Positions 5,481 through 53,615 of a stretch of DNA of 64,000 nucleotides are shown here, piece by piece. Below the pieces are notes generated by a model. The model had not been told where the DNA came from, ran no database searches, and worked only from the letters and a program-made list of their open reading frames with translations. The translations under genes were made by a program, and so were the position numbers. The DNA comes from a virus. Its lineage: Duplodnaviria; Heunggongvirae; Uroviricota; Caudoviricetes. Each line of letters begins with the position of its first letter. Within the stretch, counting starts at the first letter, position 1. The DNA lies in the IMG/VR virus record IMGVR_UViG_2541047715_000004; one strand, given 5' to 3'.

Positions 5481-6149
5481 ATGACCAAGATCTTTGTGGT
5501 TGGCGGCACAAAGGGCGGGCCTGGCAAATCCACCGTTGCCCAGCAAATTGCCGTTTGCCTGAAAGTCAAAAAGAAGAAGAAGGTTTATATCACTGATATA
5601 GATATTCAGCGCACGACAACAAGCTGGTGTGAAGACCGTCGACAGAACGAAGACCTTGAGCTGATTCCTTTTGCATACGTTCAGGATGACATCATTAAGC
5701 ACCTAAAATCGCTTCAGGGTAGAGCTGAGTTTGTAGTGGTAGATGCTGGTGGCTTCGACTCCGAAATTCAGCGACAAGCGATGCTGATGGCTGACGTTAT
5801 CATTATCCCGCTGCGTCCTAAGCGTCGTGATTTGAAATCTTTACGTGACATCGATCCTATTATCGACAATGTTCGCAATGTAAACGATAAAGTGAAGGTC
5901 CGCGCGGTCATGAACCAGTGCCCGGCTTTGCCATCACAAGTGTCTCGCATTCTGGCGGCTAAAGAGATTGTTGAGACGTTTGGCATCGAGTCTGCGCCAG
6001 TCAATCTATATAACCGCAACGTCTATGATGATGCGGAAGAGTCTGGTCGTTCTATCTTTGAAATGACCGGTAGCGAGCGCGACAAAAAGGCGGAAGCCGA
6101 GTTTGAAGAATTTGTAGATTATCTGTTGAGTCTGGAGGAAGAAGAATAA
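5481..6149 (+). CDS. parA: ParA-family partition ATPase
   Basis: Deviant Walker A GGTKGGPGKST near N-terminus; 222 aa; followed by small RHH-like partner. Confidence 0.85.
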   Translation: MTKIFVVGGTKGGPGKSTVAQQIAVCLKVKKKKKVYITDIDIQRTTTSWCEDRRQNEDLELIPFAYVQDDIIKHLKSLQGRAEFVVVDAGGFDSEIQRQAMLMADVIIIPLRPKRRDLKSLRDIDPIIDNVRNVNDKVKVRAVMNQCPALPSQVSRILAAKEIVETFGIESAPVNLYNRNVYDDAEESGRSIFEMTGSERDKKAEAEFEEFVDYLLSLEEEE

Positions 6150-6508
6150 TGTCCATGAAAATGGGTGACCTAGCAAAGCGCAAAGAGCCTGATGCACCGG
6201 CTAAGAACACAACTCCTTTGCGCCAACCAGTCAGACCACAGGGACGCCCGACTCGTGGCAAAGAGAAAATTAAAAGCCGCACAATGTCACTGGAGGACGA
6301 ATACTTCGAACTGCTGGAGATGATGAAGTTCATCCCTCGCTTCGAGAAGTTCACTCGTTCTGACGTGATTCGAGCAGCCATTTTCCATCTGGCAGAGAAG
6401 TCACCGCAGGAAATCGAGGACATCGTGAAATTGAATGAGGCGATCACCGCTGCCGATGTCACGATGCGTACCGATGAAATTAAACGCGAGTTAATGAAGA
6501 AAGGTTGA
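6149..6508 (+). CDS. small partition DNA-binding protein (ParG/RHH-like)
   Basis: 119 aa; basic N-terminus then RHH-like segment; start overlaps parA stop. Confidence 0.5.
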   Translation: MSMKMGDLAKRKEPDAPAKNTTPLRQPVRPQGRPTRGKEKIKSRTMSLEDEYFELLEMMKFIPRFEKFTRSDVIRAAIFHLAEKSPQEIEDIVKLNEAITAADVTMRTDEIKRELMKKG

Positions 6509-6517
6509 TATAAATCT

Positions 6518-6547
6518 CTAAGGCTGGTCTGCATTGGACAGCCTTAG
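6518..6547. terminator. bidirectional hairpin between convergent genes
   Basis: CTAAGGCTG...CAGCCTTAG inverted repeat between 6508 and 6569. Confidence 0.5.
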
Positions 6548-6568
6548 AAATATTTCGTTCTATGAAAG

Positions 6569-7642
6569 CTATTCGTAGTTAAGCTCACCGAACAGACTGA
6601 ACATCAAGTCACCATCCAAAATTTCAAAGGGCAACTCGACATACTCATCCTTATGTCTCGGAATTGCGTTGCCGTCGTTAGGGGCATTCTTGGTATAACC
6701 TTTTACATGTTTACCGTTTTCTTTTGTATACGGCAGCACGACAATTCGACCGTGATTTTTTGAAATGATAGTTCCTTCTTTCCAGAGCGTATTGCCTCTT
6801 GAGGTGGTTTCGCTTTCGCTAGCAACTTTAACACTCCAACCTACCTGATTTTTGTCCTCAAACCAGAAAACAAAGTTGCCAACAACCAGTACCTTTTGCC
6901 CATTCCTGAGAGCTTCATCCAGCATTCTTTTTACGCTGGCGAGTTGCAGTAACCGGTTAGCACGCGGCAGAAGCATTGAGCGAATAGTCGCTTTTGTTTT
7001 TCCCCAATGTGCAGCACCTGATAAACCAAAACCTCTGGCTATGCGTTCTTGGTAGCAGATCTTCGCTGTCTTAGCTTTGTTGTTATATGAACATTCCCAA
7101 GTGTTAGGAGCAACGAGTTGAAGTGAAACTTGGAATTTGGGAAGAAAAACAAAATGTAAGTAAGGCATCTCGCTTAGCACGTCAAAAAGGGGTTGACGCA
7201 AAGTTTCGTAATCTGGGTTAATTATTAACTCATTTAATGTCACTCGCGGATCGTTGGCGTGTGCCTTAATTGCTTCGTTGAGCATTATATGCTCTTCATC
7301 CATGAGACGTGATTTGGCTTTGAGTGCTTTGTCAACTTTCAAACGCAATGACTTCTTTTGAAACATAGATAGAGGAAGTTTTTCAATGTCAAAGCTCACG
7401 TTTTTATTCAGCTCTAATGCCGCTTTTCTTGCTTCAGGATAGTTATCGTAGTCGTCATCAAAAGCGTGGTTTGGCATACCACGATCAACATATCGCCGAT
7501 ACCAAGCAAGGGTTCCATCATTACGGAGTTTCAGACAGAACATCGACCATTTATTCCGTTCATATTTAGGCTGAGGCCAAAAAGCCAGTTCGGGAAGGCC
7601 ATATCCTGGAAGTCTATTCATGCGCATGGTGACAATATCCAC
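6569..7642 (-). CDS. hypothetical protein (lone minus-strand gene)
   Basis: 357 aa ORF with no motif I recognise; opposite orientation to flanking operons. Confidence 0.5.
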   Translation of the reverse strand: MDIVTMRMNRLPGYGLPELAFWPQPKYERNKWSMFCLKLRNDGTLAWYRRYVDRGMPNHAFDDDYDNYPEARKAALELNKNVSFDIEKLPLSMFQKKSLRLKVDKALKAKSRLMDEEHIMLNEAIKAHANDPRVTLNELIINPDYETLRQPLFDVLSEMPYLHFVFLPKFQVSLQLVAPNTWECSYNNKAKTAKICYQERIARGFGLSGAAHWGKTKATIRSMLLPRANRLLQLASVKRMLDEALRNGQKVLVVGNFVFWFEDKNQVGWSVKVASESETTSRGNTLWKEGTIISKNHGRIVVLPYTKENGKHVKGYTKNAPNDGNAIPRHKDEYVELPFEILDGDLMFSLFGELNYE

Positions 7643-45089: not shown

Positions 45090-47405
45090 ATGATAAGCAT
45101 CGTAAAACGTAACGGCCAAACAGAGCCGTTATCCGAAGAAAAATACAACCGCGTCGTAATGTATGGCGTAGAAGGCATTCGTGGTGTAAGCGCATCCGCT
45201 GTAGCAATGGGAGCTGCGGCCAGCATTTTTGATGGGATTACCACCAGCCAGTTGCATGAGGCTTTGGTTAAATCTGCCGCTGATTTGATCTCACCAGAAG
45301 CACCAAATTACTCACAGGTGGCTGCCCGCCTGAACATTTTTAAAATCCGCAAAGATGCCTTCGGTCGTTACGACTATCCGAACTTCTACCAACACATTGT
45401 CAAGAACGTTAACAAGGGCGTTTATGACAAGGATTTGCTGACACATTATTCGTTTGAAGAGATCGAAGAACTCGGCAATTACATTAAGCCGAAACGTGAC
45501 GATCTTTTTGGCTATGCAGCTACGGTGCAGTTGCAAAGCAAATACCTCGTTCAAAACCGTGTTACTGGTGAGATTCACGAAGGCCCGCAACATATCTATA
45601 TGCTGGTGGGCATGTGTCTGTTCCAGAATTGGGAAGACGACTGCGCGGGCAAAACACGTATGGAGATGGTCAAAGGTTTCTATGACGTTACAAGTACGTT
45701 CAAACTGTCTCTGCCCACACCAATCATGGCTGGCGTCCGTACTCCAACCCGTCAGTTCTCCAGTTGTGTGCTGATTGAGTCTGGCGATAGTCTGAAAGGG
45801 ATTAGTGCAGCTTCAGCCGCAATTATCGACTACGTTTCACGTCGTGCTGGAATTGGTATTGGTTTTGGCCGTATCCGTGCGCTGGGCAGTGAGATCCGCA
45901 ATGGTGAAGCCACCCATACCGGAGTTATTCCATTCCTGAAGCATTTCCAGACTGCTGTTAAATCTTGCTCGCAAGGTGGTGTTCGTGGTGGCGCAGCAAC
46001 AGCGTTTTACCCGATCTGGCATCTTGAAGTTGAAAGTCTGCTGGTGGTGAAAAATAACCGTGGTATTGATGAAAACCGCGTTCGCCATCTTGATTACGGC
46101 GTCATGAGTAACCGTCTAATGTACCGTCGACTCGTCAGAAGCGAGAACATCACTCTGTTCAGCCCGCATGATGTGCCTGATATGTACGAAGCCTTCTTCA
46201 CAGACCAGGATCTGTTTGAAAAGCTGTACCATAAATACGAAGCCGATGATTCAATTCGCAAGAAGTCAGTACCTGCCATTGAGCTGTTCTCATCTCTGAT
46301 GCAGGAACGAGCGTCCACGGGCCGAATTTATATTGCGAACGTCGATCATATTAATGAGCATGGCGCTTTCATTCCTGCTCTTGCACCTGTCCGCCAGTCA
46401 AACCTGTGCATGGAGATCACTCTACCCACTCGTCCACTGGCATTTACCGACGACCCGAACGGTGAGATCGCGCTATGCACTTTATCCGCTTTTAACCTCG
46501 GAGCCATCCGTTCACTGGAGTCTCTTAAAGAGGTGGCGTTCTATGCCGTTGCTGCACTGGATTCGTTACTGGATTATCAAGACTATCCGATGGAGGCAGC
46601 CGAAGTGCCTGCCAAAGCTCGTCGTAGCTTGGGAATTGGTGTAACCAACTTTGCTTATTACCTGGCAAAGAATGGCGTTCGTTATTCTGATACCGCTGGC
46701 AATAAACTGGTGCATGAAACGTTCGAAGCTATCCAGTATTACCTTCTTGATGCCAGCTGCCGACTTGCTGAAGCAAAAGGTGAGTGTGACTGGTTTGAGC
46801 AGACCAAGTACGCAATTGGTCAGTTGCCGATCGACCATTACCGTTCTTCATTAGACGAAAGTGGCGAAACCAACTTTGAGTTAAAGATGCCGTGGGAAGA
46901 ACTGCGTGAACGTATTGCAAAATACGGCCTTCGCAACTCCACACTGACGGCACAAATGCCATGCGAGACTTCCAGCCAGATCACTAATTCCACCAACGGC
47001 ATCGAACCGCCTCGTGGCCCGGTGTCGGTGAAATCTTCTAAGGACGGCATCGTTAAGATGGTCGTGCCTGAGTTTGAAAAACTGAAGGAACAGTATGAAT
47101 ACCTGTGGGATATGCCGGACAACCGCGGCTATCTGACAAAGGTGGCGATCATCCAGAAGTTCTTTGACCAGGCTATTTCAGCCAATACCAACTATGACCC
47201 TTCTCGCTTTGAAGGCGATAAAGTCCCAATGATGACGCTACTGTCAGATTTGCTTCTCGCCTACAAGATGGGAGTTAAAACGCTTTACTACCACAACACC
47301 AGAGATGGGGCAGGAAAGCGTGATGACGACGAACCGCAGAATCCACTGACGCAAGCTGTAGCCGTCGAGCCAGAAGATGAGTGCGACGGAGCCTGCAAAA
47401 TCTGA
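45090..47405 (+). CDS. nrdA: ribonucleotide reductase class Ia large subunit
   Basis: 771 aa; N-terminal ATP-cone-like segment (VKRNGQTEPL); C-terminal Cys-x2-Cys-containing tail; followed by nrdB. Confidence 0.85.
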   Translation: MISIVKRNGQTEPLSEEKYNRVVMYGVEGIRGVSASAVAMGAAASIFDGITTSQLHEALVKSAADLISPEAPNYSQVAARLNIFKIRKDAFGRYDYPNFYQHIVKNVNKGVYDKDLLTHYSFEEIEELGNYIKPKRDDLFGYAATVQLQSKYLVQNRVTGEIHEGPQHIYMLVGMCLFQNWEDDCAGKTRMEMVKGFYDVTSTFKLSLPTPIMAGVRTPTRQFSSCVLIESGDSLKGISAASAAIIDYVSRRAGIGIGFGRIRALGSEIRNGEATHTGVIPFLKHFQTAVKSCSQGGVRGGAATAFYPIWHLEVESLLVVKNNRGIDENRVRHLDYGVMSNRLMYRRLVRSENITLFSPHDVPDMYEAFFTDQDLFEKLYHKYEADDSIRKKSVPAIELFSSLMQERASTGRIYIANVDHINEHGAFIPALAPVRQSNLCMEITLPTRPLAFTDDPNGEIALCTLSAFNLGAIRSLESLKEVAFYAVAALDSLLDYQDYPMEAAEVPAKARRSLGIGVTNFAYYLAKNGVRYSDTAGNKLVHETFEAIQYYLLDASCRLAEAKGECDWFEQTKYAIGQLPIDHYRSSLDESGETNFELKMPWEELRERIAKYGLRNSTLTAQMPCETSSQITNSTNGIEPPRGPVSVKSSKDGIVKMVVPEFEKLKEQYEYLWDMPDNRGYLTKVAIIQKFFDQAISANTNYDPSRFEGDKVPMMTLLSDLLLAYKMGVKTLYYHNTRDGAGKRDDDEPQNPLTQAVAVEPEDECDGACKI

Positions 47406-47511
47406 CATATGGTGGGGGATATCCCCACCTTCTCTTTGATTTGTAAGCCTTGTTTAAACACATAAGATAACAACTTGTTTAAACGCACCAAAAAAGAAAA
47501 AGGAAAAACAC

Positions 47512-48654
47512 ATGTCATATTCAACGTTCCGTTTGGGTGCTAATGATGCAACCAAAGAGCCTATGTTCCTCGGACAATCTGTCAACGTGGCACGTTACGA
47601 TCAGCAAAAATACCGTGATTTTGAAAAGTTGATTGAACGTCAATTGTCTTTCTTCTGGCGGCCGGAAGAAGTTGATATTTCGAGTGATCGTATCGACTTC
47701 AACACGAAGCTGCGGGACCACGAACGTCACATTTTTCTGAGCAATCTCCGTTATCAAACGTTACTCGATTCAGTTCAGGGACGTAGCCCAAATGCAACGC
47801 TTCTGCCGCTTATCTCTATTCCTGAACTGGAAACGTGGGTTGAAACATGGTCTTTCTCTGAGACTATCCATAGCCGCAGCTACACCCACATTATTCGTGG
47901 CATGGTGGACGATCCGAGTATTGTTTTTGACGGTATTGTTACGGATGAAGAAATCATCAACCGAGCGATCAGTATCTCTGCTGAATATGACAGGCTTTAT
48001 GGGATGACCTGCGAGCGCCAGTCGTTAGGTGAGAAAGAGTTTGAACGTCTGTACGTAAATGAATATGGCTGGGAGCCATACCCTTTGCACCGTCAGCTTT
48101 TCCGCACGTTGGTGTCCATTAATGCGCTTGAGGCGATCCGTTTCTATGTAAGTTTTGCATGTACGTTTGCCTTTGGCGAACGGAAGTTGCTTGAGGGTAA
48201 CACCAAAATTATGCGCTTTATTGCCCGTGATGAAGCTCTGCATTGCGAAGGAACTGAACGCATGATCCGCTTCATGCGTACCGGTCGCGAAGGCTTATTG
48301 TGGAAAGAGATTGCTGCTGATGAAGAAAACGTCATTTACGACACCATGAAATCAGTCGCCGAACAAGAAATGAACTGGGCAGACTATCTCTTCAAAGACG
48401 GTTCGATGATTGGTTTAAACGCGGATATTCTGAAGACCTATGTAAAATACCGCACCAATCTGGCTATGAATCGTCTTGGCCTGAAGGCTTTATTTCCAGA
48501 AGTTACCACAGATCCGCTGGTCTGGATGAACAAGTGGTTGTTAACCGACACACTGCAAATTGCACCACAAGAGGCAGAGCAAAGCACATATCTGGTAGGT
48601 CAGATCGATTCTACCGTGGATAAGGCTTCTCTAAGCCAGTTTGCAGACCTGTAA
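47512..48654 (+). CDS. nrdB: ribonucleotide reductase class Ia small subunit
   Basis: 380 aa; position and size immediately downstream of nrdA, consistent with a di-iron/tyrosyl-radical R2 subunit. Confidence 0.85.
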
Positions 48655-48731
48655 ACCGATACAAAGCATTATGTGGCCTGGCAACGCTGGGCCACAATGG
48701 ATCACAAGAATTAAGAAGGAACAAAACTAGT

Positions 48732-49601
48732 ATGAACTTTACCAAACTGACTGACCACCTGAAACTTGCCACCGATCGACTCATTGGATTTAAGCCAGAA
48801 CCATATGAGTTGCATGAAGGCCATGGTGTAGCCACTGAAAGTATTTACAAGATGGTCGATCAGTTTCATGAACTCTTCCAGCATCCGAGACGCGTTATGC
48901 CGACACCAGAGCTGCTTCGTCTCCGTGCAAGCCTGATTCATGAAGAAGCTGTAGTGGAAGGTATTCCAGCCGCAATGAATGGGGATATTGAGCAACTGCT
49001 GGATGCAATGGCCGACTTTTTATACGTTGGTGTTGGTACGATGGTCGCCATCAAAGGTGGTATTTCTACCGGCATGACCTATTACACGCAGGAACAGAGC
49101 ATTGATCGCTTTATGCAGACAATTTTTGTGCCCGGTAACACTGTTTTCGATGATATGGCAATGCCATTTCAGGAAGCTCGTGAGGCGTCATGTATGCTCG
49201 AAGAGCTGGCAGATAAACTTGAGAACAAGACTGTTAAGGATTCTGAGCTGATTCAGGAACTGCGCCGTGTCATGAACAAAATCTATGTGGCGTGCATGAT
49301 GACCTATCGACTGGCTGATTTCCTCGGTATCAATGTAGTCGAGCTGGTTGGCGAAATTCATCGGTCTAACATGACAAAATTATGGCCTGCTGATGTAGAG
49401 GAACGTCGCCAGGCTGTGGCCAACTGCAAATACGACTCTTCAGACCTGGGATTTCGCCATGCTGATGGTACCGATAAGATGATCGGTTTTCGAATTTCCG
49501 ATGGAAAGATTCTGAAGTCTCCAACCTATAGTGATGTCGATTTATCCTCCTTTGTTGAGCAAGCTAAAGCCTCAGCAATGTACGGAATGATCAAAAAATA
49601 A
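48732..49601 (+). CDS. hypothetical protein, possibly MazG-like nucleotide pyrophosphohydrolase
   Basis: Helical, Glu-rich repeats; position in nucleotide-metabolism block; no firm motif. Confidence 0.3.
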   Translation: MNFTKLTDHLKLATDRLIGFKPEPYELHEGHGVATESIYKMVDQFHELFQHPRRVMPTPELLRLRASLIHEEAVVEGIPAAMNGDIEQLLDAMADFLYVGVGTMVAIKGGISTGMTYYTQEQSIDRFMQTIFVPGNTVFDDMAMPFQEAREASCMLEELADKLENKTVKDSELIQELRRVMNKIYVACMMTYRLADFLGINVVELVGEIHRSNMTKLWPADVEERRQAVANCKYDSSDLGFRHADGTDKMIGFRISDGKILKSPTYSDVDLSSFVEQAKASAMYGMIKK

Positions 49602-49771
49602 TTGTAGGTAGTTATCTATCTGTGTATATTTAACATGCGTAATAAAACTCTGGAATGACTATTCGTTTTGGTGGCCTATGGCCACCATTTTTTTATCTGT
49701 CTGGTCTTGTTCTCTCAATGAATGTAAACTCACACGATGAATAAGTAATTACTTATATTTGTGAGGTTTTT

Positions 49772-50875
49772 GTGTCACTCCTTTTGAATCGAGAGCATAC
49801 GAACGGTCAGGTAACAAACGCATCGTATGCAAAAGTTATTGAGACGGTGCTTAAAAGCGGCGTGCAGGCTGATGATCGCACAGGCACTGGTACTTTAAGC
49901 ACCTGCTACGTTCCCTCTTACTACATGCTTACTGGTGGGACTGTGCCGCTTATTTCTGGAAAGGCGGTAAATCTTAAGCCACTACTTGTCGAACTTGAGT
50001 GGTATCTGAAAGGCACGGGCAACATCCAATTTCTCAAGGATAACGGCGTTAAGATTTGGGATGCATGGGCCGATGAGAATGGCGATTTGGGGCCGGTTTA
50101 CGGTAAGCAGTGGCGTCGATGGGAAGATACCCGCATCGTGAGCCATAGTGAATATCTGAGCAAGATCGCTACTTTCCGTGAACGCGGGTACAAAGTCGAG
50201 GGATACCTGGGTATCAGTGAAGATCGCGTAGTGCTGTCCCGTGAAATCGATCAGCTACAGCGTATTGTCGATACACTGCGCACGAACCCTACCGATCGTC
50301 GCATCATGCTTAACGCATGGAACGTAGGCGAGCTTGAGGATATGAAACTGCCACCTTGCCACTTTGTCTTCTCTTTGTGGAGTCGTGAGCTGGATTTTGA
50401 AACCCGTTTAACGATGGCAACTGACATTGGTCTTCAACACAGTCGCCTCGGTTACGAGTCTATCTACACCAAGATGCTATACGATCTGGAGATGGACGGC
50501 AGTGTTACTGAAGCTGAACTGGATGAACTTGGAATCCCCAAACGCATCCTCAACTCCTGCCTCGTACAGCGTAGCGTAGACACTTTTGTTGGTATGCCAT
50601 TCAATATTGCTGGCTATGGCATTCTCACTCATTTTCTCGCGAAGATTACGGGTCACATGGCCGGTGCATTTGTGCATTTTGGCTTTGACGTGCATTTGTA
50701 CAACAACCACATGGAAGGTGTGTGTGAGCTAATGAAACGACAGGCTCCAGAGCATTCAGATCCGGTCGTTATTTTCCCTCATGAATGGTCAGAGTTGGAT
50801 GATTTCAAATGGGACGAGGTTTTAATTCTTGGCTATGACCCTCTACCGTGGATCAAGGTTCCAGTGGCGGTGTGA
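49772..50875 (+). CDS. thyA: thymidylate synthase (ThyA-type) with two insertions
   Basis: DRTGTGT, WADENGDLGPVYGKQWR and active-site LPPCH motifs match ThyA; 367 aa (about 100 aa longer than typical bacterial ThyA); GTG start. Confidence 0.8.
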   Translation: MSLLLNREHTNGQVTNASYAKVIETVLKSGVQADDRTGTGTLSTCYVPSYYMLTGGTVPLISGKAVNLKPLLVELEWYLKGTGNIQFLKDNGVKIWDAWADENGDLGPVYGKQWRRWEDTRIVSHSEYLSKIATFRERGYKVEGYLGISEDRVVLSREIDQLQRIVDTLRTNPTDRRIMLNAWNVGELEDMKLPPCHFVFSLWSRELDFETRLTMATDIGLQHSRLGYESIYTKMLYDLEMDGSVTEAELDELGIPKRILNSCLVQRSVDTFVGMPFNIAGYGILTHFLAKITGHMAGAFVHFGFDVHLYNNHMEGVCELMKRQAPEHSDPVVIFPHEWSELDDFKWDEVLILGYDPLPWIKVPVAV

Positions 50876-50876
50876 T

Positions 50877-51290
50877 ATGGCAAGAGGTATGTATGTCTTA
50901 TGCGAAATTGAAGGTGTGCTGGCAAATGCCAGCCATCGTAAATCAGTATCTGACGCGGATGCAGGCCAGCTCATTGCCGGTGATGAACTCATTTTCCCCA
51001 CCAGCCGTATGTTGCGTGGTTTTGCTCGCTCAGGGGCTGAAGTGGTGCTTATCAGTAGCCGCTCTGAAACTCTTGAAGCGCCAACTAAACGATGGCTGAA
51101 AGATTTTGGCGTTGATTATGACTGGCTTCATCTTGTACCGAATGGCACCAGTTATGAGAAGCATATTAAGCGCACATTAGCGGAGCATAAAGGCGATCTG
51201 CTTATCGCTGCGCTGGTGCACGATCCTCGACTCCGTGCCGCTTTAGCCGACTCTCACCATCGACCGGTCATCTATGAGGTGAGCAAATGA
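50877..51290 (+). CDS. hypothetical protein (possible degenerate HAD-like fold)
   Basis: Start overlaps thyA stop; YVLCEIEGVL resembles HAD motif I without the Asp pair. Confidence 0.3.
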   Translation: MARGMYVLCEIEGVLANASHRKSVSDADAGQLIAGDELIFPTSRMLRGFARSGAEVVLISSRSETLEAPTKRWLKDFGVDYDWLHLVPNGTSYEKHIKRTLAEHKGDLLIAALVHDPRLRAALADSHHRPVIYEVSK

Positions 51291-51763
51291 AGATGATCGC
51301 TGCTGTTGGCCGTAACTATGAGATCGGCATAGCGAATGAACTCCCCTGGCGTTGTTCTACCGATCTGAAGCTATTTAAGAGACTCACCAAAAACGCCACT
51401 GTCGTTATGGGGCGTAAAACGATGGAAAGTCTCAAACGCCCTCTTCCAGAGCGTCATAACCTCGTTTTGACGCGCTCTCATGGCTTTGTACCAAATGGAT
51501 TCTACCCTGCTGGTGTGGATGATGTGTTGCGATTACCAGAGCCTGTGTGGGTGATTGGCGGGGAACAAATTTACTCGCTATTCATGCCGCATGTTGAAGA
51601 GATTTGGCTCTCCCACATCGGCGTTGATGTACCAAACGCCGATGCATTCTTCCCGGCAAGCATGATGCGTAACTTAGGCTTTGTGCCTGTTGAAACAGCT
51701 TATACCCAACGAGCCAGCGAGGAAGAGCCTGGCTTTTCGCAGATCGTATACAGAAGGTCGTAA
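51287..51763 (+). CDS. folA: dihydrofolate reductase
   Basis: MIAAVGRNYEIGIANELPW N-terminal motif and GRKT segment; 158 aa. Confidence 0.85.
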   Translation: MKMIAAVGRNYEIGIANELPWRCSTDLKLFKRLTKNATVVMGRKTMESLKRPLPERHNLVLTRSHGFVPNGFYPAGVDDVLRLPEPVWVIGGEQIYSLFMPHVEEIWLSHIGVDVPNADAFFPASMMRNLGFVPVETAYTQRASEEEPGFSQIVYRRS

Positions 51764-52407
51764 TGGATTACCGGATTGGGATCACTGGTGCTCAGGGCAG
51801 TGGGAAAACAACCCTGGCAAAATATATCGACAAACATTACGGAATCCCTTACGTGGATGCTGGTGTCGGAAGTTTGATGAGCCGCCTCGGTGTTCGAGTA
51901 GGTGAGTCTATGCCTCTATATGAGCGGCTTCAGATTCAAATGGAAATAGCAAAGCATATAGAGCTACTTACGCGTGGTGTTGAAGGCTTTGTTATCGATC
52001 GCACACCTGCTGATGTTATGGCCTACACGTTGGATTTGGTCGGCCATACCAATGAAGATCGATGTATTGAGTTAGCCCTCGATATCGAAAAGTTTTGCCA
52101 CAAAACTGCTATTTCAAACTTTAACGCCATTGCTGGCTTACGCCCGGGAGTCGCTCTCTCAGAGCGAGATTACTTGCGATCACAACGAGCATCATTAGAC
52201 CGTCTGTATGTCGCTCGTATTGATGCGTTGATGTGCGGGGAACTGACAAAAATTCACCTGCATCCGCAAAGGGGGGATCTGCAAACCTTCGTCGTTTCCA
52301 ACCGATATCGCACGGTTGAAGCAAGAGCCAGATCAGTGATGAGAATGCTAGATAACGCTGTAGAAAAGATAGAAAACCGGTTCTGTGGCCGAGTGACCGT
52401 TCATTAG
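51763..52407 (+). CDS. P-loop NTPase (putative nucleotide kinase)
   Basis: Walker A GAQGSGKTT near N-terminus; 214 aa. Confidence 0.45.
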   Translation: MDYRIGITGAQGSGKTTLAKYIDKHYGIPYVDAGVGSLMSRLGVRVGESMPLYERLQIQMEIAKHIELLTRGVEGFVIDRTPADVMAYTLDLVGHTNEDRCIELALDIEKFCHKTAISNFNAIAGLRPGVALSERDYLRSQRASLDRLYVARIDALMCGELTKIHLHPQRGDLQTFVVSNRYRTVEARARSVMRMLDNAVEKIENRFCGRVTVH

Positions 52408-52468
52408 AAATTGTTCGCCTCTTCGACATTGCGACAATAAAACTCTCAAAATGGGTTAAGGATAAAAA

Positions 52469-52888
52469 ATGTTTAGTGAAATGTTGCTTGAAGATGAACT
52501 GGATCGGAAAACAACAGAGGCTTTGATTCGTGTAGCGGACGAACATTCCCGGTCGCTTATGAGCGATCGAGAGGCTCGTCTGGCTATTCGTGCCATATTC
52601 GAAACTGCGCAGGGGCTTGTTGGCGCACAAGTAGGTGAAGCCATTAACATCGCCATGTCTCAGTTCAGTGAAGACAGTAAAAAGCCTCTGTTTCCTATGC
52701 ATTTGATGCTGGCTGGTGGCACGGTGCTTTATATCTCTGTTTGTCTGGATAGCAACCAAATCAATATTCTCAACACTGCGTCAGGTAAGTGGAAAGATCC
52801 GATTGTCTGTGAAACCAGTGAAGAAACTTTGAAAAAAGCGGCTCAATTTGTACGTAGCGCACTACTTAAGGGCGCTAAGAAGTTGTAA
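52469..52888 (+). CDS. hypothetical protein
   Basis: 139 aa ORF. Confidence 0.4.
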   Translation: MFSEMLLEDELDRKTTEALIRVADEHSRSLMSDREARLAIRAIFETAQGLVGAQVGEAINIAMSQFSEDSKKPLFPMHLMLAGGTVLYISVCLDSNQINILNTASGKWKDPIVCETSEETLKKAAQFVRSALLKGAKKL

Positions 52889-52897
52889 GGAGTTCTG

Positions 52898-53455
52898 ATG
52901 ACAACGATTGTTGCAGGCATCGATATCGAGTCTACGGGACTGGATTTCCTTGCTGGTCATAAAATTATTGAAATCGCAATTACCCGCTATGAACTGGAGA
53001 CACAGAGACATATTGATAGTCTGGAGATGCGTTTTAACCCTCGCAGAAACATAGATCCGAAAGCTCAAGCCGTTCATGGCATTTCATTAGAACAGCTCGC
53101 AGCTGAACCTTTGTTGTCAAATCATGCCAGCGAAATTGGCGCTTATATGGGGGCATGTAGTGCGTGGATTGCTCATAACGGCGAAGCGTTTGATATACCA
53201 TTTATTCGACACGAGTTTTCAGGGTATGGAGTAAGACTGCCAGACGTTCCCGTTATAGATACTATGTTATCGGGATTGTGGGCCACAGAAGACGGTAAAC
53301 GTCCTCGCCTTGAAGAGTTGGCCTTCTCTCTTGGCTTTATATACGATCATGCCAAAGCACATAGTGCCTTATATGACACAAACTTAATGATGCAATGCTT
53401 CTTTAAGGCACGTAATAAGTACGGATTTTTTAAATTACCCTCTGAAATTGTGTAA
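52898..53455 (+). CDS. DnaQ-like 3-prime-5-prime exonuclease (DEDDh)
   Basis: Exo motifs IDIESTGLD, HNGEAFDIPF, HSALYD; 185 aa. Confidence 0.8.
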   Translation: MTTIVAGIDIESTGLDFLAGHKIIEIAITRYELETQRHIDSLEMRFNPRRNIDPKAQAVHGISLEQLAAEPLLSNHASEIGAYMGACSAWIAHNGEAFDIPFIRHEFSGYGVRLPDVPVIDTMLSGLWATEDGKRPRLEELAFSLGFIYDHAKAHSALYDTNLMMQCFFKARNKYGFFKLPSEIV

Positions 53456-53460
53456 AACAA

Positions 53461-53497
53461 AAGCCTACTTTAAAGAGAGTTTAAAGTAGGCTTTCTT
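53461..53497 (+). terminator. intrinsic terminator hairpin
   Basis: AAGCCTACTTTAAA...TTTAAAGTAGGCTT followed by T-rich tract. Confidence 0.65.
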
Positions 53498-53615
53498 TTA
53501 AAGAACAGCCGCCTTTCAATCATTTCCTGCCTGTATTTAATACTTTTCCGCCTGATAGGTTTAGTCAAAATGTAGCTATCGAAACGCAAATGTAACCAAG
53601 CAGAAGGAGACTTAC

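Follow-up and report, generated by a model that had tools for sequence, protein, structure and literature searches.

The presence of thyA, dhfR and nrdAB on pHCM2 was noted in 2002, according to a later paper that cites the observation (PMC12928451). Orthologs of the thymidylate synthase (TS) described here, 367 aa long, occur in Salmonella phage SSU5 (YP_006906713), in pHCM2/pLF82-type plasmids and in Escherichia phage Cyrano, with identities ranging from 87.5% (SSU5) to 99.7% (Cyrano). Genes that are 100% identical lie on plasmids of ~110 kb in 230 of 5,426 complete E. coli genomes, where RefSeq annotates them as "thymidylate synthase". This annotation stands in hundreds of RefSeq plasmids. 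The dihydrofolate reductase (DHFR) of SSU5, DfrA51, is a functional, trimethoprim-insensitive enzyme by experiment (PMC12217456).

The stretch of DNA analysed here (64,000 nucleotides; hereafter the window) is an SSU5/pHCM2-type phage-plasmid and shares 99.3% identity with Cyrano. Its gene order, nrdA-nrdB-MazG-thyA-HAD-DHFR-kinase, is that of SSU5 and Cyrano, with no substantive difference, and the thyA coordinates match the annotation of both. The Cyrano record labels its thyA as 'ThyX', which is a mislabelling. We predict, with a probability of roughly 85%, that the window gene encodes a catalytically canonical, folate-dependent ThyA (EC 2.1.1.45) of this phage-plasmid type. The protein carries two large inserts, which are real, folded and conserved and give no sign of new chemistry.

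The thyA gene and its neighbourhood

The following features make up the surroundings of thyA:

47512..48654, plus strand: nrdB, ribonucleotide reductase small subunit, belonging to the nucleotide-supply block (PF00268, E = 4.5e-46; annotated in SSU5 and Cyrano)
48732..49601, plus strand: MazG-like nucleotide pyrophosphohydrolase, 289 aa (PF01503, E = 1.3e-8; phrog_671)
49669..49694, plus strand: terminator-like hairpin with an 8-bp stem (6 G-C pairs) followed by T7 (consensus scan and sequence; a pattern match only)
49763..49766, plus strand: Shine-Dalgarno sequence GAGG, 5 nt upstream of the thyA GTG (read from the sequence)
49772..50875, plus strand: thyA, 367-aa thymidylate synthase, GTG start, stop included (open reading frame list and translation)
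50877..51290, plus strand: HAD/PNKP-phosphatase-like protein, 137 aa (start codon as in the SSU5 and Cyrano annotation)
51287..51763, plus strand: dihydrofolate reductase, 158 aa (PF00186, E = 1.6e-34)
51763..52407, plus strand: P-loop nucleotide-kinase-like protein, 214 aa (AAA_28, E = 2e-9)

The terminator-like hairpin sits between the MazG-like gene and thyA. A consensus scan found no sigma-70-like promoter between the hairpin and thyA. A regulatory RNA in the 170-nt thyA leader was considered and rejected, an Rfam search of positions 47000-53500 having returned no match at E <= 1. Downstream, the genes are tightly packed: the junctions thyA/HAD-like, HAD-like/DHFR and DHFR/kinase-like measure +1, -4 and -1 nt, which places the DHFR gene two genes 3' of thyA within the same block.

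Among the neighbours, the DHFR is the most clearly defined, being 91% identical to SSU5 DfrA51. The MazG-like protein, encoded upstream of thyA, finds its best PDB match in DR2231 (E = 1.4e-3) and is a possible supplier of dUMP from dUTP. The HAD-like protein scores 22.8 bits against PF25109, under the cut-off of 27.6, and matches Pnkp1 (PDB 4xrp) at E = 1.9e-5. The kinase-like protein hits phrog_2107 'thymidylate kinase' (E = 2.9e-10), and its distant phage homologs bear that name in RefSeq; these similarities hint weakly at a putative dNMP/thymidylate kinase.

As a whole, thyA is a routine nucleotide-supply gene of a common enterobacterial phage-plasmid family. The thyA-DHFR block is part of the same unit as the trimethoprim-insensitive DfrA50/51 genes. 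Since these are now followed as determinants of resistance, the module is of some clinical interest.

Family membership and active site of the window ThyA

The following features were located within thyA:

49772..49822, plus strand: N-terminal extension, residues 1-17, relative to E. coli ThyA (MAFFT)
50126..50236, plus strand: insert 1, residues 119-155, adding 34 residues at E. coli position ~105 (MAFFT, phmmer)
50357..50359, plus strand: codon for Cys196 of LPPCH, the catalytic cysteine (E. coli C146) (invariant column in three alignments)
50381..50548, plus strand: insert 2, residues ~204-259, adding 51 residues at E. coli position ~158 (MAFFT, phmmer)
50603..50605, plus strand: codon of Asn278 (E. 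coli N177), which governs dUMP versus dCMP specificity (invariant alignment column; role according to PMC8670742)

The initial annotation had described the product as a ThyA with two large insertions of about 30 and 50 aa that retains the signature segments of the family, and this description holds. The product matches PF00303 with E = 2.2e-78 (263.5 bits against a cut-off of 24.3) and TIGR03284 with 219 bits (cut-off 108.35), the inserts measure 34 and 51 residues, and the four motifs that had been quoted are all found: DRTGTGT at residues 35-41, WADENGDLGPVYGKQWR at 99-115, LPPCH at 193-197 and GYDPLPWIKVPVAV at 354-367. Two strict NCBIfam ThyA equivalogs are missed, namely NF002497 (261.5 against 327) and NF002499 (238.6 against 405). 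The AlphaFold2 (AF2) model adopts the TS fold, with a TM-score of 0.94 to E. coli ThyA when normalised to the target.

The catalytic, dUMP-binding and folate-binding residues are all invariant across 34-51 aligned homologs. The four arginines that contact the dUMP phosphate are kept as R36, R176, R177 and R267 (E. coli R21, R126', R127' and R166), each in an invariant column. The residues of the folate site and of hydride transfer are likewise retained as E74, W96, W99, Y110, D270, H308 and Y310 (E. coli E58, W80, W83, Y94, D169, H207 and Y209), as is the C-terminal closing PVAV. The uracil-specificity pair, Asn278 for E. coli N177 and His197 for H147, is present as in dUMP-methylating enzymes; these are the two most discriminating positions (PMC8670742).

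The core of the SSU5-clade ThyA is divergent, being 44% identical to the E. coli enzyme, and substitutions specific to the clade cluster on the dimer-interface strands. Two positions that contact the folate glutamate tail are altered (E. coli H51 to N, S54 to P). The core is under strong purifying selection. The N-terminal extension, which adds 15 aa relative to E. coli ThyA (MAFFT), is less constrained than the rest of the protein, with a dN/dS of ~0.30 and 56% identity to SSU5; the first ten residues are modelled with a pLDDT of 79.

Position, fold and conservation of the two inserts

A phmmer search against the PDB resolves the protein into three blocks matched to E. coli ThyA (residues 18-118, 156-203 and 261-367), separated by the two inserts. 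Insert 1 is predicted with high confidence (pLDDT 94-98) to fold into a strand, two short helices and a β-hairpin, with strands at 117-124, 141-146 and 152-159 and helices at 125-130 and 132-137. Insert 2 starts ~8 residues past the PCH motif, in a β-hairpin turn. Three helices (209-225, 231-242 and 247-253; pLDDT 95-98) replace the turn of this hairpin after the catalytic Cys. Neither insert has a sequence match in the PDB, and insert 2 has no counterpart there.

Alignment and model together place both inserts at loop or hairpin ends away from the catalytic residues. Ile159, directly after insert 1, aligns pairwise to V158 of human TS, and the strands flanking insert 2 correspond to those of human L198 and L212; V158 lies on the dimer interface of human TS, and L198 and L212 belong to the interface sheet (PMC9536839). 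Both inserts are thus predicted to emerge at the edges of the β-sheet that forms the obligate dimer interface.

Both inserts are under purifying selection. Compared with SSU5, insert 1 has a dN of 0.036, below that of the core, at a dS of 1.15, while insert 2 has a dN of 0.139 with synonymous sites saturated. The anchors of the inserts are conserved and their tips variable. Across 36 sequences, the insert 2 anchors R212 and P256 are invariant, and D251 and R258 occur in 83% and 86%, respectively; the proteins in which these anchors persist are only 36-83% identical. Measured per column as the mean fraction with the commonest residue, conservation is 0.29-0.35 in the inserts and 0.62 in the core. 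Net charge, checked as a hint of nucleic-acid binding, is mildly acidic on average in the inserts and follows no consistent pattern.

An origin of the inserts as inteins or mobile elements was considered and rejected, as Pfam reports PF00303 alone and the PDB holds no sequence match. The inserts are, moreover, modelled as integral to the fold and are under purifying selection.

Spread of the inserts among ThyA homologs

Inserts at both sites recur in a large group of ThyA proteins, including those of enterobacterial jumbo phages, and wherever the source of a double-insert form is identifiable it is a phage or phage-plasmid. Across the ThyA family, insertions recur at three hot spots, namely E. 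coli positions ~80-90, ~100-109 and ~151-158, at which insert lengths range from ~10 to >100 residues and all combinations are seen. In a neighbour-joining tree of the core only, built to look for a single origin of the inserts but crude and carrying no support values, the insert-bearing proteins do not form one clade.

The double-insert ThyA architecture is widespread in phages and uncharacterised, and its helical second insert is without a solved structure. We found no published description of these inserts in the literature.

Proposed mechanism and weighing of altered chemistry

Mapping the established ThyA chemistry onto the residues conserved in the window protein suggests the following course of the reaction. 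Cys196 would attack C6 of dUMP, which would be held by Arg36, Arg267, Ser268, Asn278, His308 and Tyr310, together with Arg176 and Arg177 of the partner subunit. Transfer of the methylene group from 5,10-CH2-THF would be helped by Glu74, Trp96, Trp99, Tyr110, His197 and Asp270, with the C-terminal PVAV closing the active site. Hydride from the folate would then yield dTMP and dihydrofolate, the latter presumably being returned to the folate cycle by the DHFR from the gene two places downstream. ThyA, DHFR, NrdAB, the MazG-like protein and the kinase-like protein form a self-contained module that would supply dTTP for replication of the element.

The initial annotation had raised the possibility that the insertions indicate an altered specificity such as that of a hydroxymethylase. 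Such an enzyme, for instance a dUMP hydroxymethylase, would make 5-hmdUMP for restriction-resistant DNA, with the inserts reshaping the active site. The MazG-like protein would then act as dTTPase, the HAD-like protein as dTMPase and the kinase-like protein as hmdUMP kinase, as in SPO1-type hmU phages. The neighbourhood does bear a superficial likeness to the toolkit of hmU phages, which comprises a pyrophosphohydrolase, a phosphatase and a dNMP kinase (PMC8989533), and the ThyA core is divergent enough to miss the two strict equivalog cut-offs. Against this stand Asn278 and His197, the canonical residues of dUMP methylases, and the invariance of Trp96, Trp99, Tyr110 and the C-terminal PVAV. 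The tryptophans, Tyr110 and PVAV sequester the exocyclic-methylene intermediate for hydride transfer. The characterised dUMP hydroxymethylase of SPO1, gp29, is only 19-20% identical to the window protein (BLASTP E = 0.024). It lacks DRTGTGT, both tryptophans (W80, W83), H147 and the C-terminal motif, all of which the window protein has, and the additional residues of gp29 extend its C-terminus, unlike the inserts seen here.

Within the gene neighbourhood, it is the DHFR that argues against hydroxymethylation. DHFR regenerates tetrahydrofolate for TS, and a dUMP hydroxymethylase needs none (PMC4528723); the co-packed DHFR of functional type is needed only if dihydrofolate is produced. The SSU5 annotation holds no dCMP deaminase, 5-hmU DNA kinase, glycosyltransferase or amino-acid-transferase, and the kinase-like protein matches nothing in the thymidine-hypermodifying phages. 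The inserts themselves emerge away from the catalytic residues. On account of the residues, the gp29 comparison and the DHFR linkage we reject the hydroxymethylase reading, which we regard as very improbable. Activity on dCMP, as in hydroxymethylases or methylases of the T4 gp42 type, does not fit either: such enzymes carry Asp where E. coli ThyA has Asn177, and the window protein has Asn278 there. T4 gp42, like SPO1 gp29, also works without DHFR. Extremely improbable, finally, is a catalytically dead ThyA-like protein with a regulatory or structural role: only the divergence of the core speaks for it, and it is opposed by the invariant catalytic residues, the strongly purifying selection on the core and the linkage to DHFR.

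Inserts at both sites are common among ThyA homologs, which is one half of what the initial annotation had itself set against a change of function; the other half was complementation of thyA with canonical dTMP as product. Because many phage ThyA enzymes carry the inserts, these are no sign of new chemistry, and because the gene is a routine, already annotated thymidylate synthase, it gives no pointer to modified DNA or restriction evasion. One jumbo-phage protein with both inserts (P0040) shares 78% of its core residues with E. coli ThyA and clears the strict equivalog cut-offs, which suggests that the double-insert architecture is compatible with a canonical ThyA. We do not think that the inserts alter the chemistry of the canonical ThyA predicted here.

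Possible roles of the inserts

From their position in the fold, the inserts may strengthen the dimer interface or adapt it to a special task, such as making phage subunits pair with each other rather than with host ThyA, and/or offer a docking surface. We put this forward tentatively, as a possible rather than a probable role.

Should the inserts instead serve as a docking platform, in line with the interaction surfaces suggested in the initial annotation and with the chemistry remaining canonical, the partners would be DHFR, the kinase-like protein, NrdAB and the MazG-like protein in a dNTP-synthesising complex, or dihydrofolate would be channelled to DHFR. The conserved anchors and variable tips of what are surface elaborations agree with this, as do the tight packing of thyA with the DHFR and kinase-like genes and the restriction of the identifiable double-insert forms to phages and phage-plasmids. 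The inserts of T4 TS have reportedly been proposed to serve the dNTP-synthetase complex. Yet jumbo phages with the same inserts have other gene neighbours. In Erwinia phage Parshik, the seven proteins flanking TS have no Pfam match, and the Parshik 'MazG' shows no detectable relation to the MazG-like protein of the window. Insert 1 is also present in a cellular ThyA, that of Burkholderia thailandensis (3V8H), and the mildly acidic inserts have an inconsistent charge pattern. Taken together, we consider a docking platform rather unlikely.

The inserts could also be tolerated, near-neutral decorations of insertion-accepting loops that are kept as part of the fold. This is favoured by the three recurrent hot spots, with their free combination of sites and wide range of lengths, and by the low conservation within the inserts relative to the core. 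It is harder to reconcile with the invariant Arg212 and Pro256 and the nearly invariant Asp251 and Arg258 across such divergent proteins, with a dN in insert 1 that is lower than in the core, and with a secondary-structure pattern common to the SSU5 type and the jumbo-phage type. Near-neutrality of this kind is possible but doubtful in our view.

Jointly, the two inserts might constitute a conserved accessory element at the edge of the dimer interface, known for the most part from phages. It would give an insulated homodimer whose subunits are not swapped with those of host ThyA, and/or a docking site for DHFR and the kinase that channels dTTP synthesis to the benefit of the phage. We judge this combined role somewhat unlikely. 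If true, the element would define a previously undescribed structural class of ThyA common to phage-plasmids and jumbo phages.

Comparison with known systems

Of all PDB entries, E. coli ThyA (264 aa; PDB 2TSC, 1TYS) matches the profile of the double-insert proteins best (E = 6e-125). The two enzymes are alike in fold, in catalytic, dUMP and folate residues and in the C-terminal motif. They differ in the N-terminal extension and the two inserts that the window protein adds, and in its more divergent core, with the clade-specific changes on the interface strands and at H51 and S54.

Lactobacillus casei ThyA (316 aa) is a bona fide ThyA that carries a small-domain insert of ~50 residues, which we take to lie at E. 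coli position ~87. Its insert occupies a third, different site, and kinship of the window inserts at ~105 and ~158 with the L. casei type was rejected.

Human TS has inserts at its N-terminus and at residues 115-126 and 146-153, and the insert 1 site equals the 146-153 loop. The loop runs on to V158 at the interface, and a part in inter-subunit allostery has been ascribed to the human inserts (PMC9536839). The human insert at this first site consists of 8 flexible residues, whereas insert 1 of the window comprises 34 and is folded. At the hairpin that follows the catalytic Cys, where the window ThyA carries insert 2, the human enzyme lacks any insertion.

The B. thailandensis ThyA (3V8H; NF010393/PRK13821, long ThyA) is the only solved TS whose structure aligns beyond the core, over 288 residues compared with ~247. 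Its residues 115-203 align gap-free to residues 115-203 of the window protein, which points to a first-site insert of comparable length, although there is no detectable sequence similarity within insert 1. The NF010393 profile scores 137.7 bits on the window ThyA against a cut-off of 576, so that the protein falls outside this family. The profile crosses the first insert site without a break and picks up again separately beyond the second; because of this split, and with 79 residues of the window protein unaligned, the helical second insert lacks an equivalent in 3V8H, itself a cellular enzyme.

Outside the SSU5 clade, a likeness is found in the TS of jumbo phages, namely Erwinia phages Wellington, Machina and Parshik, Salmonella phages SEGD1/SPFM, Cronobacter phage CR5 and Pseudomonas phage 201phi2-1. 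Both insert sites are occupied in these proteins, which also show the invariant anchors and the secondary-structure pattern seen in the window ThyA. Overall identity is ~40%, and insert lengths and genomic neighbours differ. In the core they resemble E. coli ThyA (up to 78% identity) and pass the strict ThyA equivalogs, in contrast to the core of the window ThyA, which at 44% fails them. Structurally, the Foldseek TM-scores normalised to the query are 0.78-0.86 for these jumbo-phage TS, a match that extends past the core; scores of 0.82-0.86 to jumbo-phage TS models compare with 0.68 for matches that cover the core only.

A probably canonical thymidylate synthase with two insertions

The thymidylate synthase (ThyA) gene lies in a region of the window with these features:

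48732-49601 (+): MazG-like protein, 289 aa, Pfam match at aa 42-106 only
49669-49694 (+): terminator-like hairpin, TGGTGGCC-TAT-GGCCACCA then T7, between the MazG-like gene and thyA
5 nt upstream of the thyA GTG (+): Shine-Dalgarno GAGG, seen in the sequence
49772-50875 (+): thyA open reading frame, GTG start, 367 aa
50877-51290 (+): HAD-like gene, ATG start following the SSU5/Cyrano annotation, 137 aa, 1 nt past the thyA stop

E. coli ThyA matches the protein in three blocks, residues 18-118, 156-203 and 261-367 (phmmer, PDB chains). In a MAFFT alignment, whose E. coli sequence agrees with the phmmer PDB alignments, the N-terminus is 15 residues longer, and 34 and 51 additional residues follow E. 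coli positions ~105 (insertion 1, aa 119-155) and ~158 (insertion 2, aa 204-259). The initial annotation had described a ThyA with two large insertions of about 30 and 50 residues; the reading frame and both insertions bear this out, and every ThyA motif it quoted is found in the translation.

In sequence, fold and context, the protein matches a canonical ThyA coupled to dihydrofolate reductase (DHFR). It scores 263.5 bits against PF00303 (cut-off 24.3) and 219 bits against the TIGR03284 equivalog (cut-off 108.35), and falls below the cut-off of stricter ThyA sub-equivalogs because its core, 44% identical to E. coli ThyA, is divergent. All residues known for catalysis or binding are invariant in alignments of 34-51 homologs.

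Invariant residues, with E. coli numbering in brackets
R36 (R21), E74 (E58), W96/W99 (W80/W83), Y110 (Y94)
R176/R177 (R126/R127), C196/H197 (C146/H147)
Q266/R267/S268 (Q165/R166/S167), D270 (D169), N278 (N177)
H308/Y310 (H207/Y209), plus the C-terminal PVAV

By established ThyA chemistry, Cys196 would add to C6 of dUMP, CH2-THF would donate a methylene to the adduct, and a folate hydride would complete dTMP, leaving dihydrofolate to be recycled by the neighbouring DHFR.

The insertions had also been taken as a possible sign of altered specificity, such as that of a hydroxymethylase. It is very improbable that the protein is a dUMP hydroxymethylase rather than a methylating ThyA. Positions 177 and 147, the best discriminators of dUMP- and dCMP-directed enzymes (PMC8670742), are in the dUMP/methylase state, with Asn at the first and His at the second. 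SPO1 gp29, a characterised dUMP hydroxymethylase, is 19-20% identical (BLASTP E = 0.024). DRTGTGT, the two tryptophans, His147 and the C-terminal tail are all missing from gp29, and the residues that make it longer extend its C-terminus rather than filling these two sites. Thymidylate synthase needs DHFR because it oxidises folate to dihydrofolate, while a dUMP hydroxymethylase needs none (PMC4528723), and a DHFR gene sits in the same tight block as thyA. Nothing in SSU5 is annotated as a dCMP deaminase, 5-hmU DNA kinase or base-hypermodification enzyme, and no homolog of the neighbouring kinase-like protein was found in known thymidine-hypermodifying phages.

Structure and conservation of the insertions

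Both insertions are modelled with pLDDT 94-98. Insertion 1 prolongs the strand at W117 (117-124), continues into helices 125-130 and 132-137, and ends in a β-hairpin (141-146/152-159) leading back into the conserved I-D-Q helix. Insertion 2 follows the catalytic cysteine, where three helices (209-225, 231-242 and 247-253) replace a tight turn between hairpin strands 197-206 and 258-266. Compared with SSU5, dN is 0.036 (dS 1.15) for insertion 1, 0.139 (dS saturated) for insertion 2 and 0.055 for the core; the insertion values indicate purifying selection on both. Among 36 double-insert proteins of 36-83% identity, Arg212 and Pro256 of insertion 2 are invariant, Asp251 and Arg258 occur in 83% and 86%, and the middle of either insertion varies in sequence and length.

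Distribution of the double-insert form

The double-insert architecture is common among phage ThyAs. A long second-site insertion is present in 51 of 116 alignable proteins from the best 120 relatives, and all 51 also carry the first (11-35 residues at the first site, 28-64 at the second). Carriers include the enterobacterial jumbo phages Erwinia Wellington, Machina and Parshik, Salmonella SEGD1/SPFM and Cronobacter CR5, and an unrelated phage-like contig. When 1.84 billion cluster representatives were searched with a profile and the hits aligned by hmmalign, 116 of the best 150 proteins aligned well: 42 with both sites, 25 with both plus the L. casei-type site, 16 with the first only, 12 with the second only and 11 with the second and L. 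casei sites, a list biased to the query profile that gives breadth, not frequency. Many ThyA-family representatives (P0122-P0261) reach 430-590 aa and have very large unaligned regions at either terminus or at the insertion hot spots.

Jumbo-phage double-insert cores are E. coli-like (up to 78% identity), whereas that of the SSU5 clade, the ThyAs of SSU5/pHCM2-type phage-plasmids, is 44% identical. At the upper end, P0040 (78%) passes the strict ThyA equivalogs, and its AlphaFold model has the same strand-helix-hairpin and three-helix patterns. Foldseek gave query-normalised TM scores of 0.82-0.86 to viral models of long jumbo-phage thymidylate synthases and 0.68 where solved structures matched the core only. 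Insertion-bearing proteins do not form one clade in a crude core-only tree; host thyA recombination, repeated insertion loss or a poor tree are possible reasons.

Genomic context

Over positions 47000-53000, identity to Escherichia phage Cyrano is 99.3% and to Salmonella phage SSU5 76%; the window, Cyrano and SSU5 are all SSU5/pHCM2-type phage-plasmids. The ThyA is 99.7% identical to that of Cyrano, 87.5% to SSU5 and 77% to Klebsiella phage-plasmids. The gene occurs in 230 of 5,426 complete E. coli genomes, with 232 of 234 copies on ~110 kb plasmids; two are chromosomal. Copies of at least 60% identity are found on about 730 PLSDB plasmids. Identical genes (100%) are named "thymidylate synthase" in RefSeq, and thyA, dhfR and nrdAB on pHCM2 were noted as early as 2002, as cited in PMC12928451; the gene is therefore known and annotated.

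Several records merit comment. The 2.03-Mb contig CP071326.1 holds a 353-aa double-insert thyA (6001-7062) within a complete SSU5-like block (nrdA, nrdB, MazG-like, thyA, HAD-like, DHFR, kinase-like, exonuclease, methyltransferase), here on a 2-Mb replicon, not a ~110 kb plasmid. Two names in Cyrano (OV696614) look wrong: CYRAN_72 (window 49772-50875), a PF00303 ThyA, is called 'ThyX Thymidylate synthase', although ThyX, a flavin enzyme, is unrelated, and CYRAN_75 (51763-52407), called 'ABC transporter ATP-binding protein', is a 214-aa P-loop protein matching nucleotide-kinase-like families. SSU5 (NC_018843; 42761-46439, 82493-84178) carries two proteins annotated 'porphyrin biosynthesis' and a tRNA-Asn, and at the same loci a 561-aa DNA methyltransferase and a small adenine methyltransferase.

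Downstream of thyA follow HAD-like, DHFR and P-loop kinase-like genes, with junctions of +1, -4 and -1 nt. The HAD-like product resembles HAD/PNKP phosphatases (4xrp Pnkp1, E = 1.9e-5; Pfam score under cut-off); mechanical ORF calling instead gives a 153-aa TTG frame at 50829-51290 (+), overlapping the thyA end. The MazG-like protein best matches the MazG-like DR2231 in the PDB, weakly (E = 1.4e-3), at aa 51-104. DR2231 is a dUTPase, and the MazG-like protein may provide dUMP by acting on dUTP. A second, weak match to the same DR2231 region covers aa 185-217; possibly the MazG-like protein is a MazG tandem, or fused dimer. Distant phage homologs of the kinase-like protein are named thymidylate kinase, and it may phosphorylate dTMP. 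The DHFR shares 91% identity with SSU5 DfrA51, by experiment a functional, trimethoprim-insensitive enzyme (PMC12217456). Together with NrdAB, ThyA, the DHFR and the MazG-like and kinase-like proteins would form a self-contained dTTP-supply module. The hairpin at 49669-49694 is strong, so thyA and the three genes after it may be transcribed apart from nrdAB and the MazG-like gene; neither a sigma-70-like promoter nor an Rfam match was found in the thyA leader.

Comparison with known enzymes

Both insertions emerge at the ends of interface β-sheet elements (cf. PMC9536839), and SSU5-clade-specific substitutions concentrate on interface strands (E. coli F30, G31, Q33, R35, Q151, F152, Y153, S160, C161). 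These two observations lead us to favour, tentatively (probability roughly 0.3), a model in which the insertions elaborate or specialise the dimer interface and/or dock partners, leaving the chemistry unchanged. Among solved structures, insertion 2 has a counterpart neither in sequence nor in structure. Our literature search found no published description of the helical second insertion or of the double-insert subfamily, which therefore pose a small structural question.

The first site has precedents in human TS and one solved bacterial ThyA. The insertions of human TS sit at the N-terminus, at 115-126 and at 146-153. The last occupies the insertion 1 loop, runs into the dimer-interface residue V158 and has been linked to inter-subunit allostery (PMC9536839). 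The Burkholderia thailandensis ThyA 3V8H also carries an insertion at the first site, with no detectable sequence similarity to insertion 1; membership of its long-ThyA family, NF010393, was rejected (137.7 bits against 576). The 50-residue insertion of L. casei ThyA, unlike the two described here, lies at a third site.
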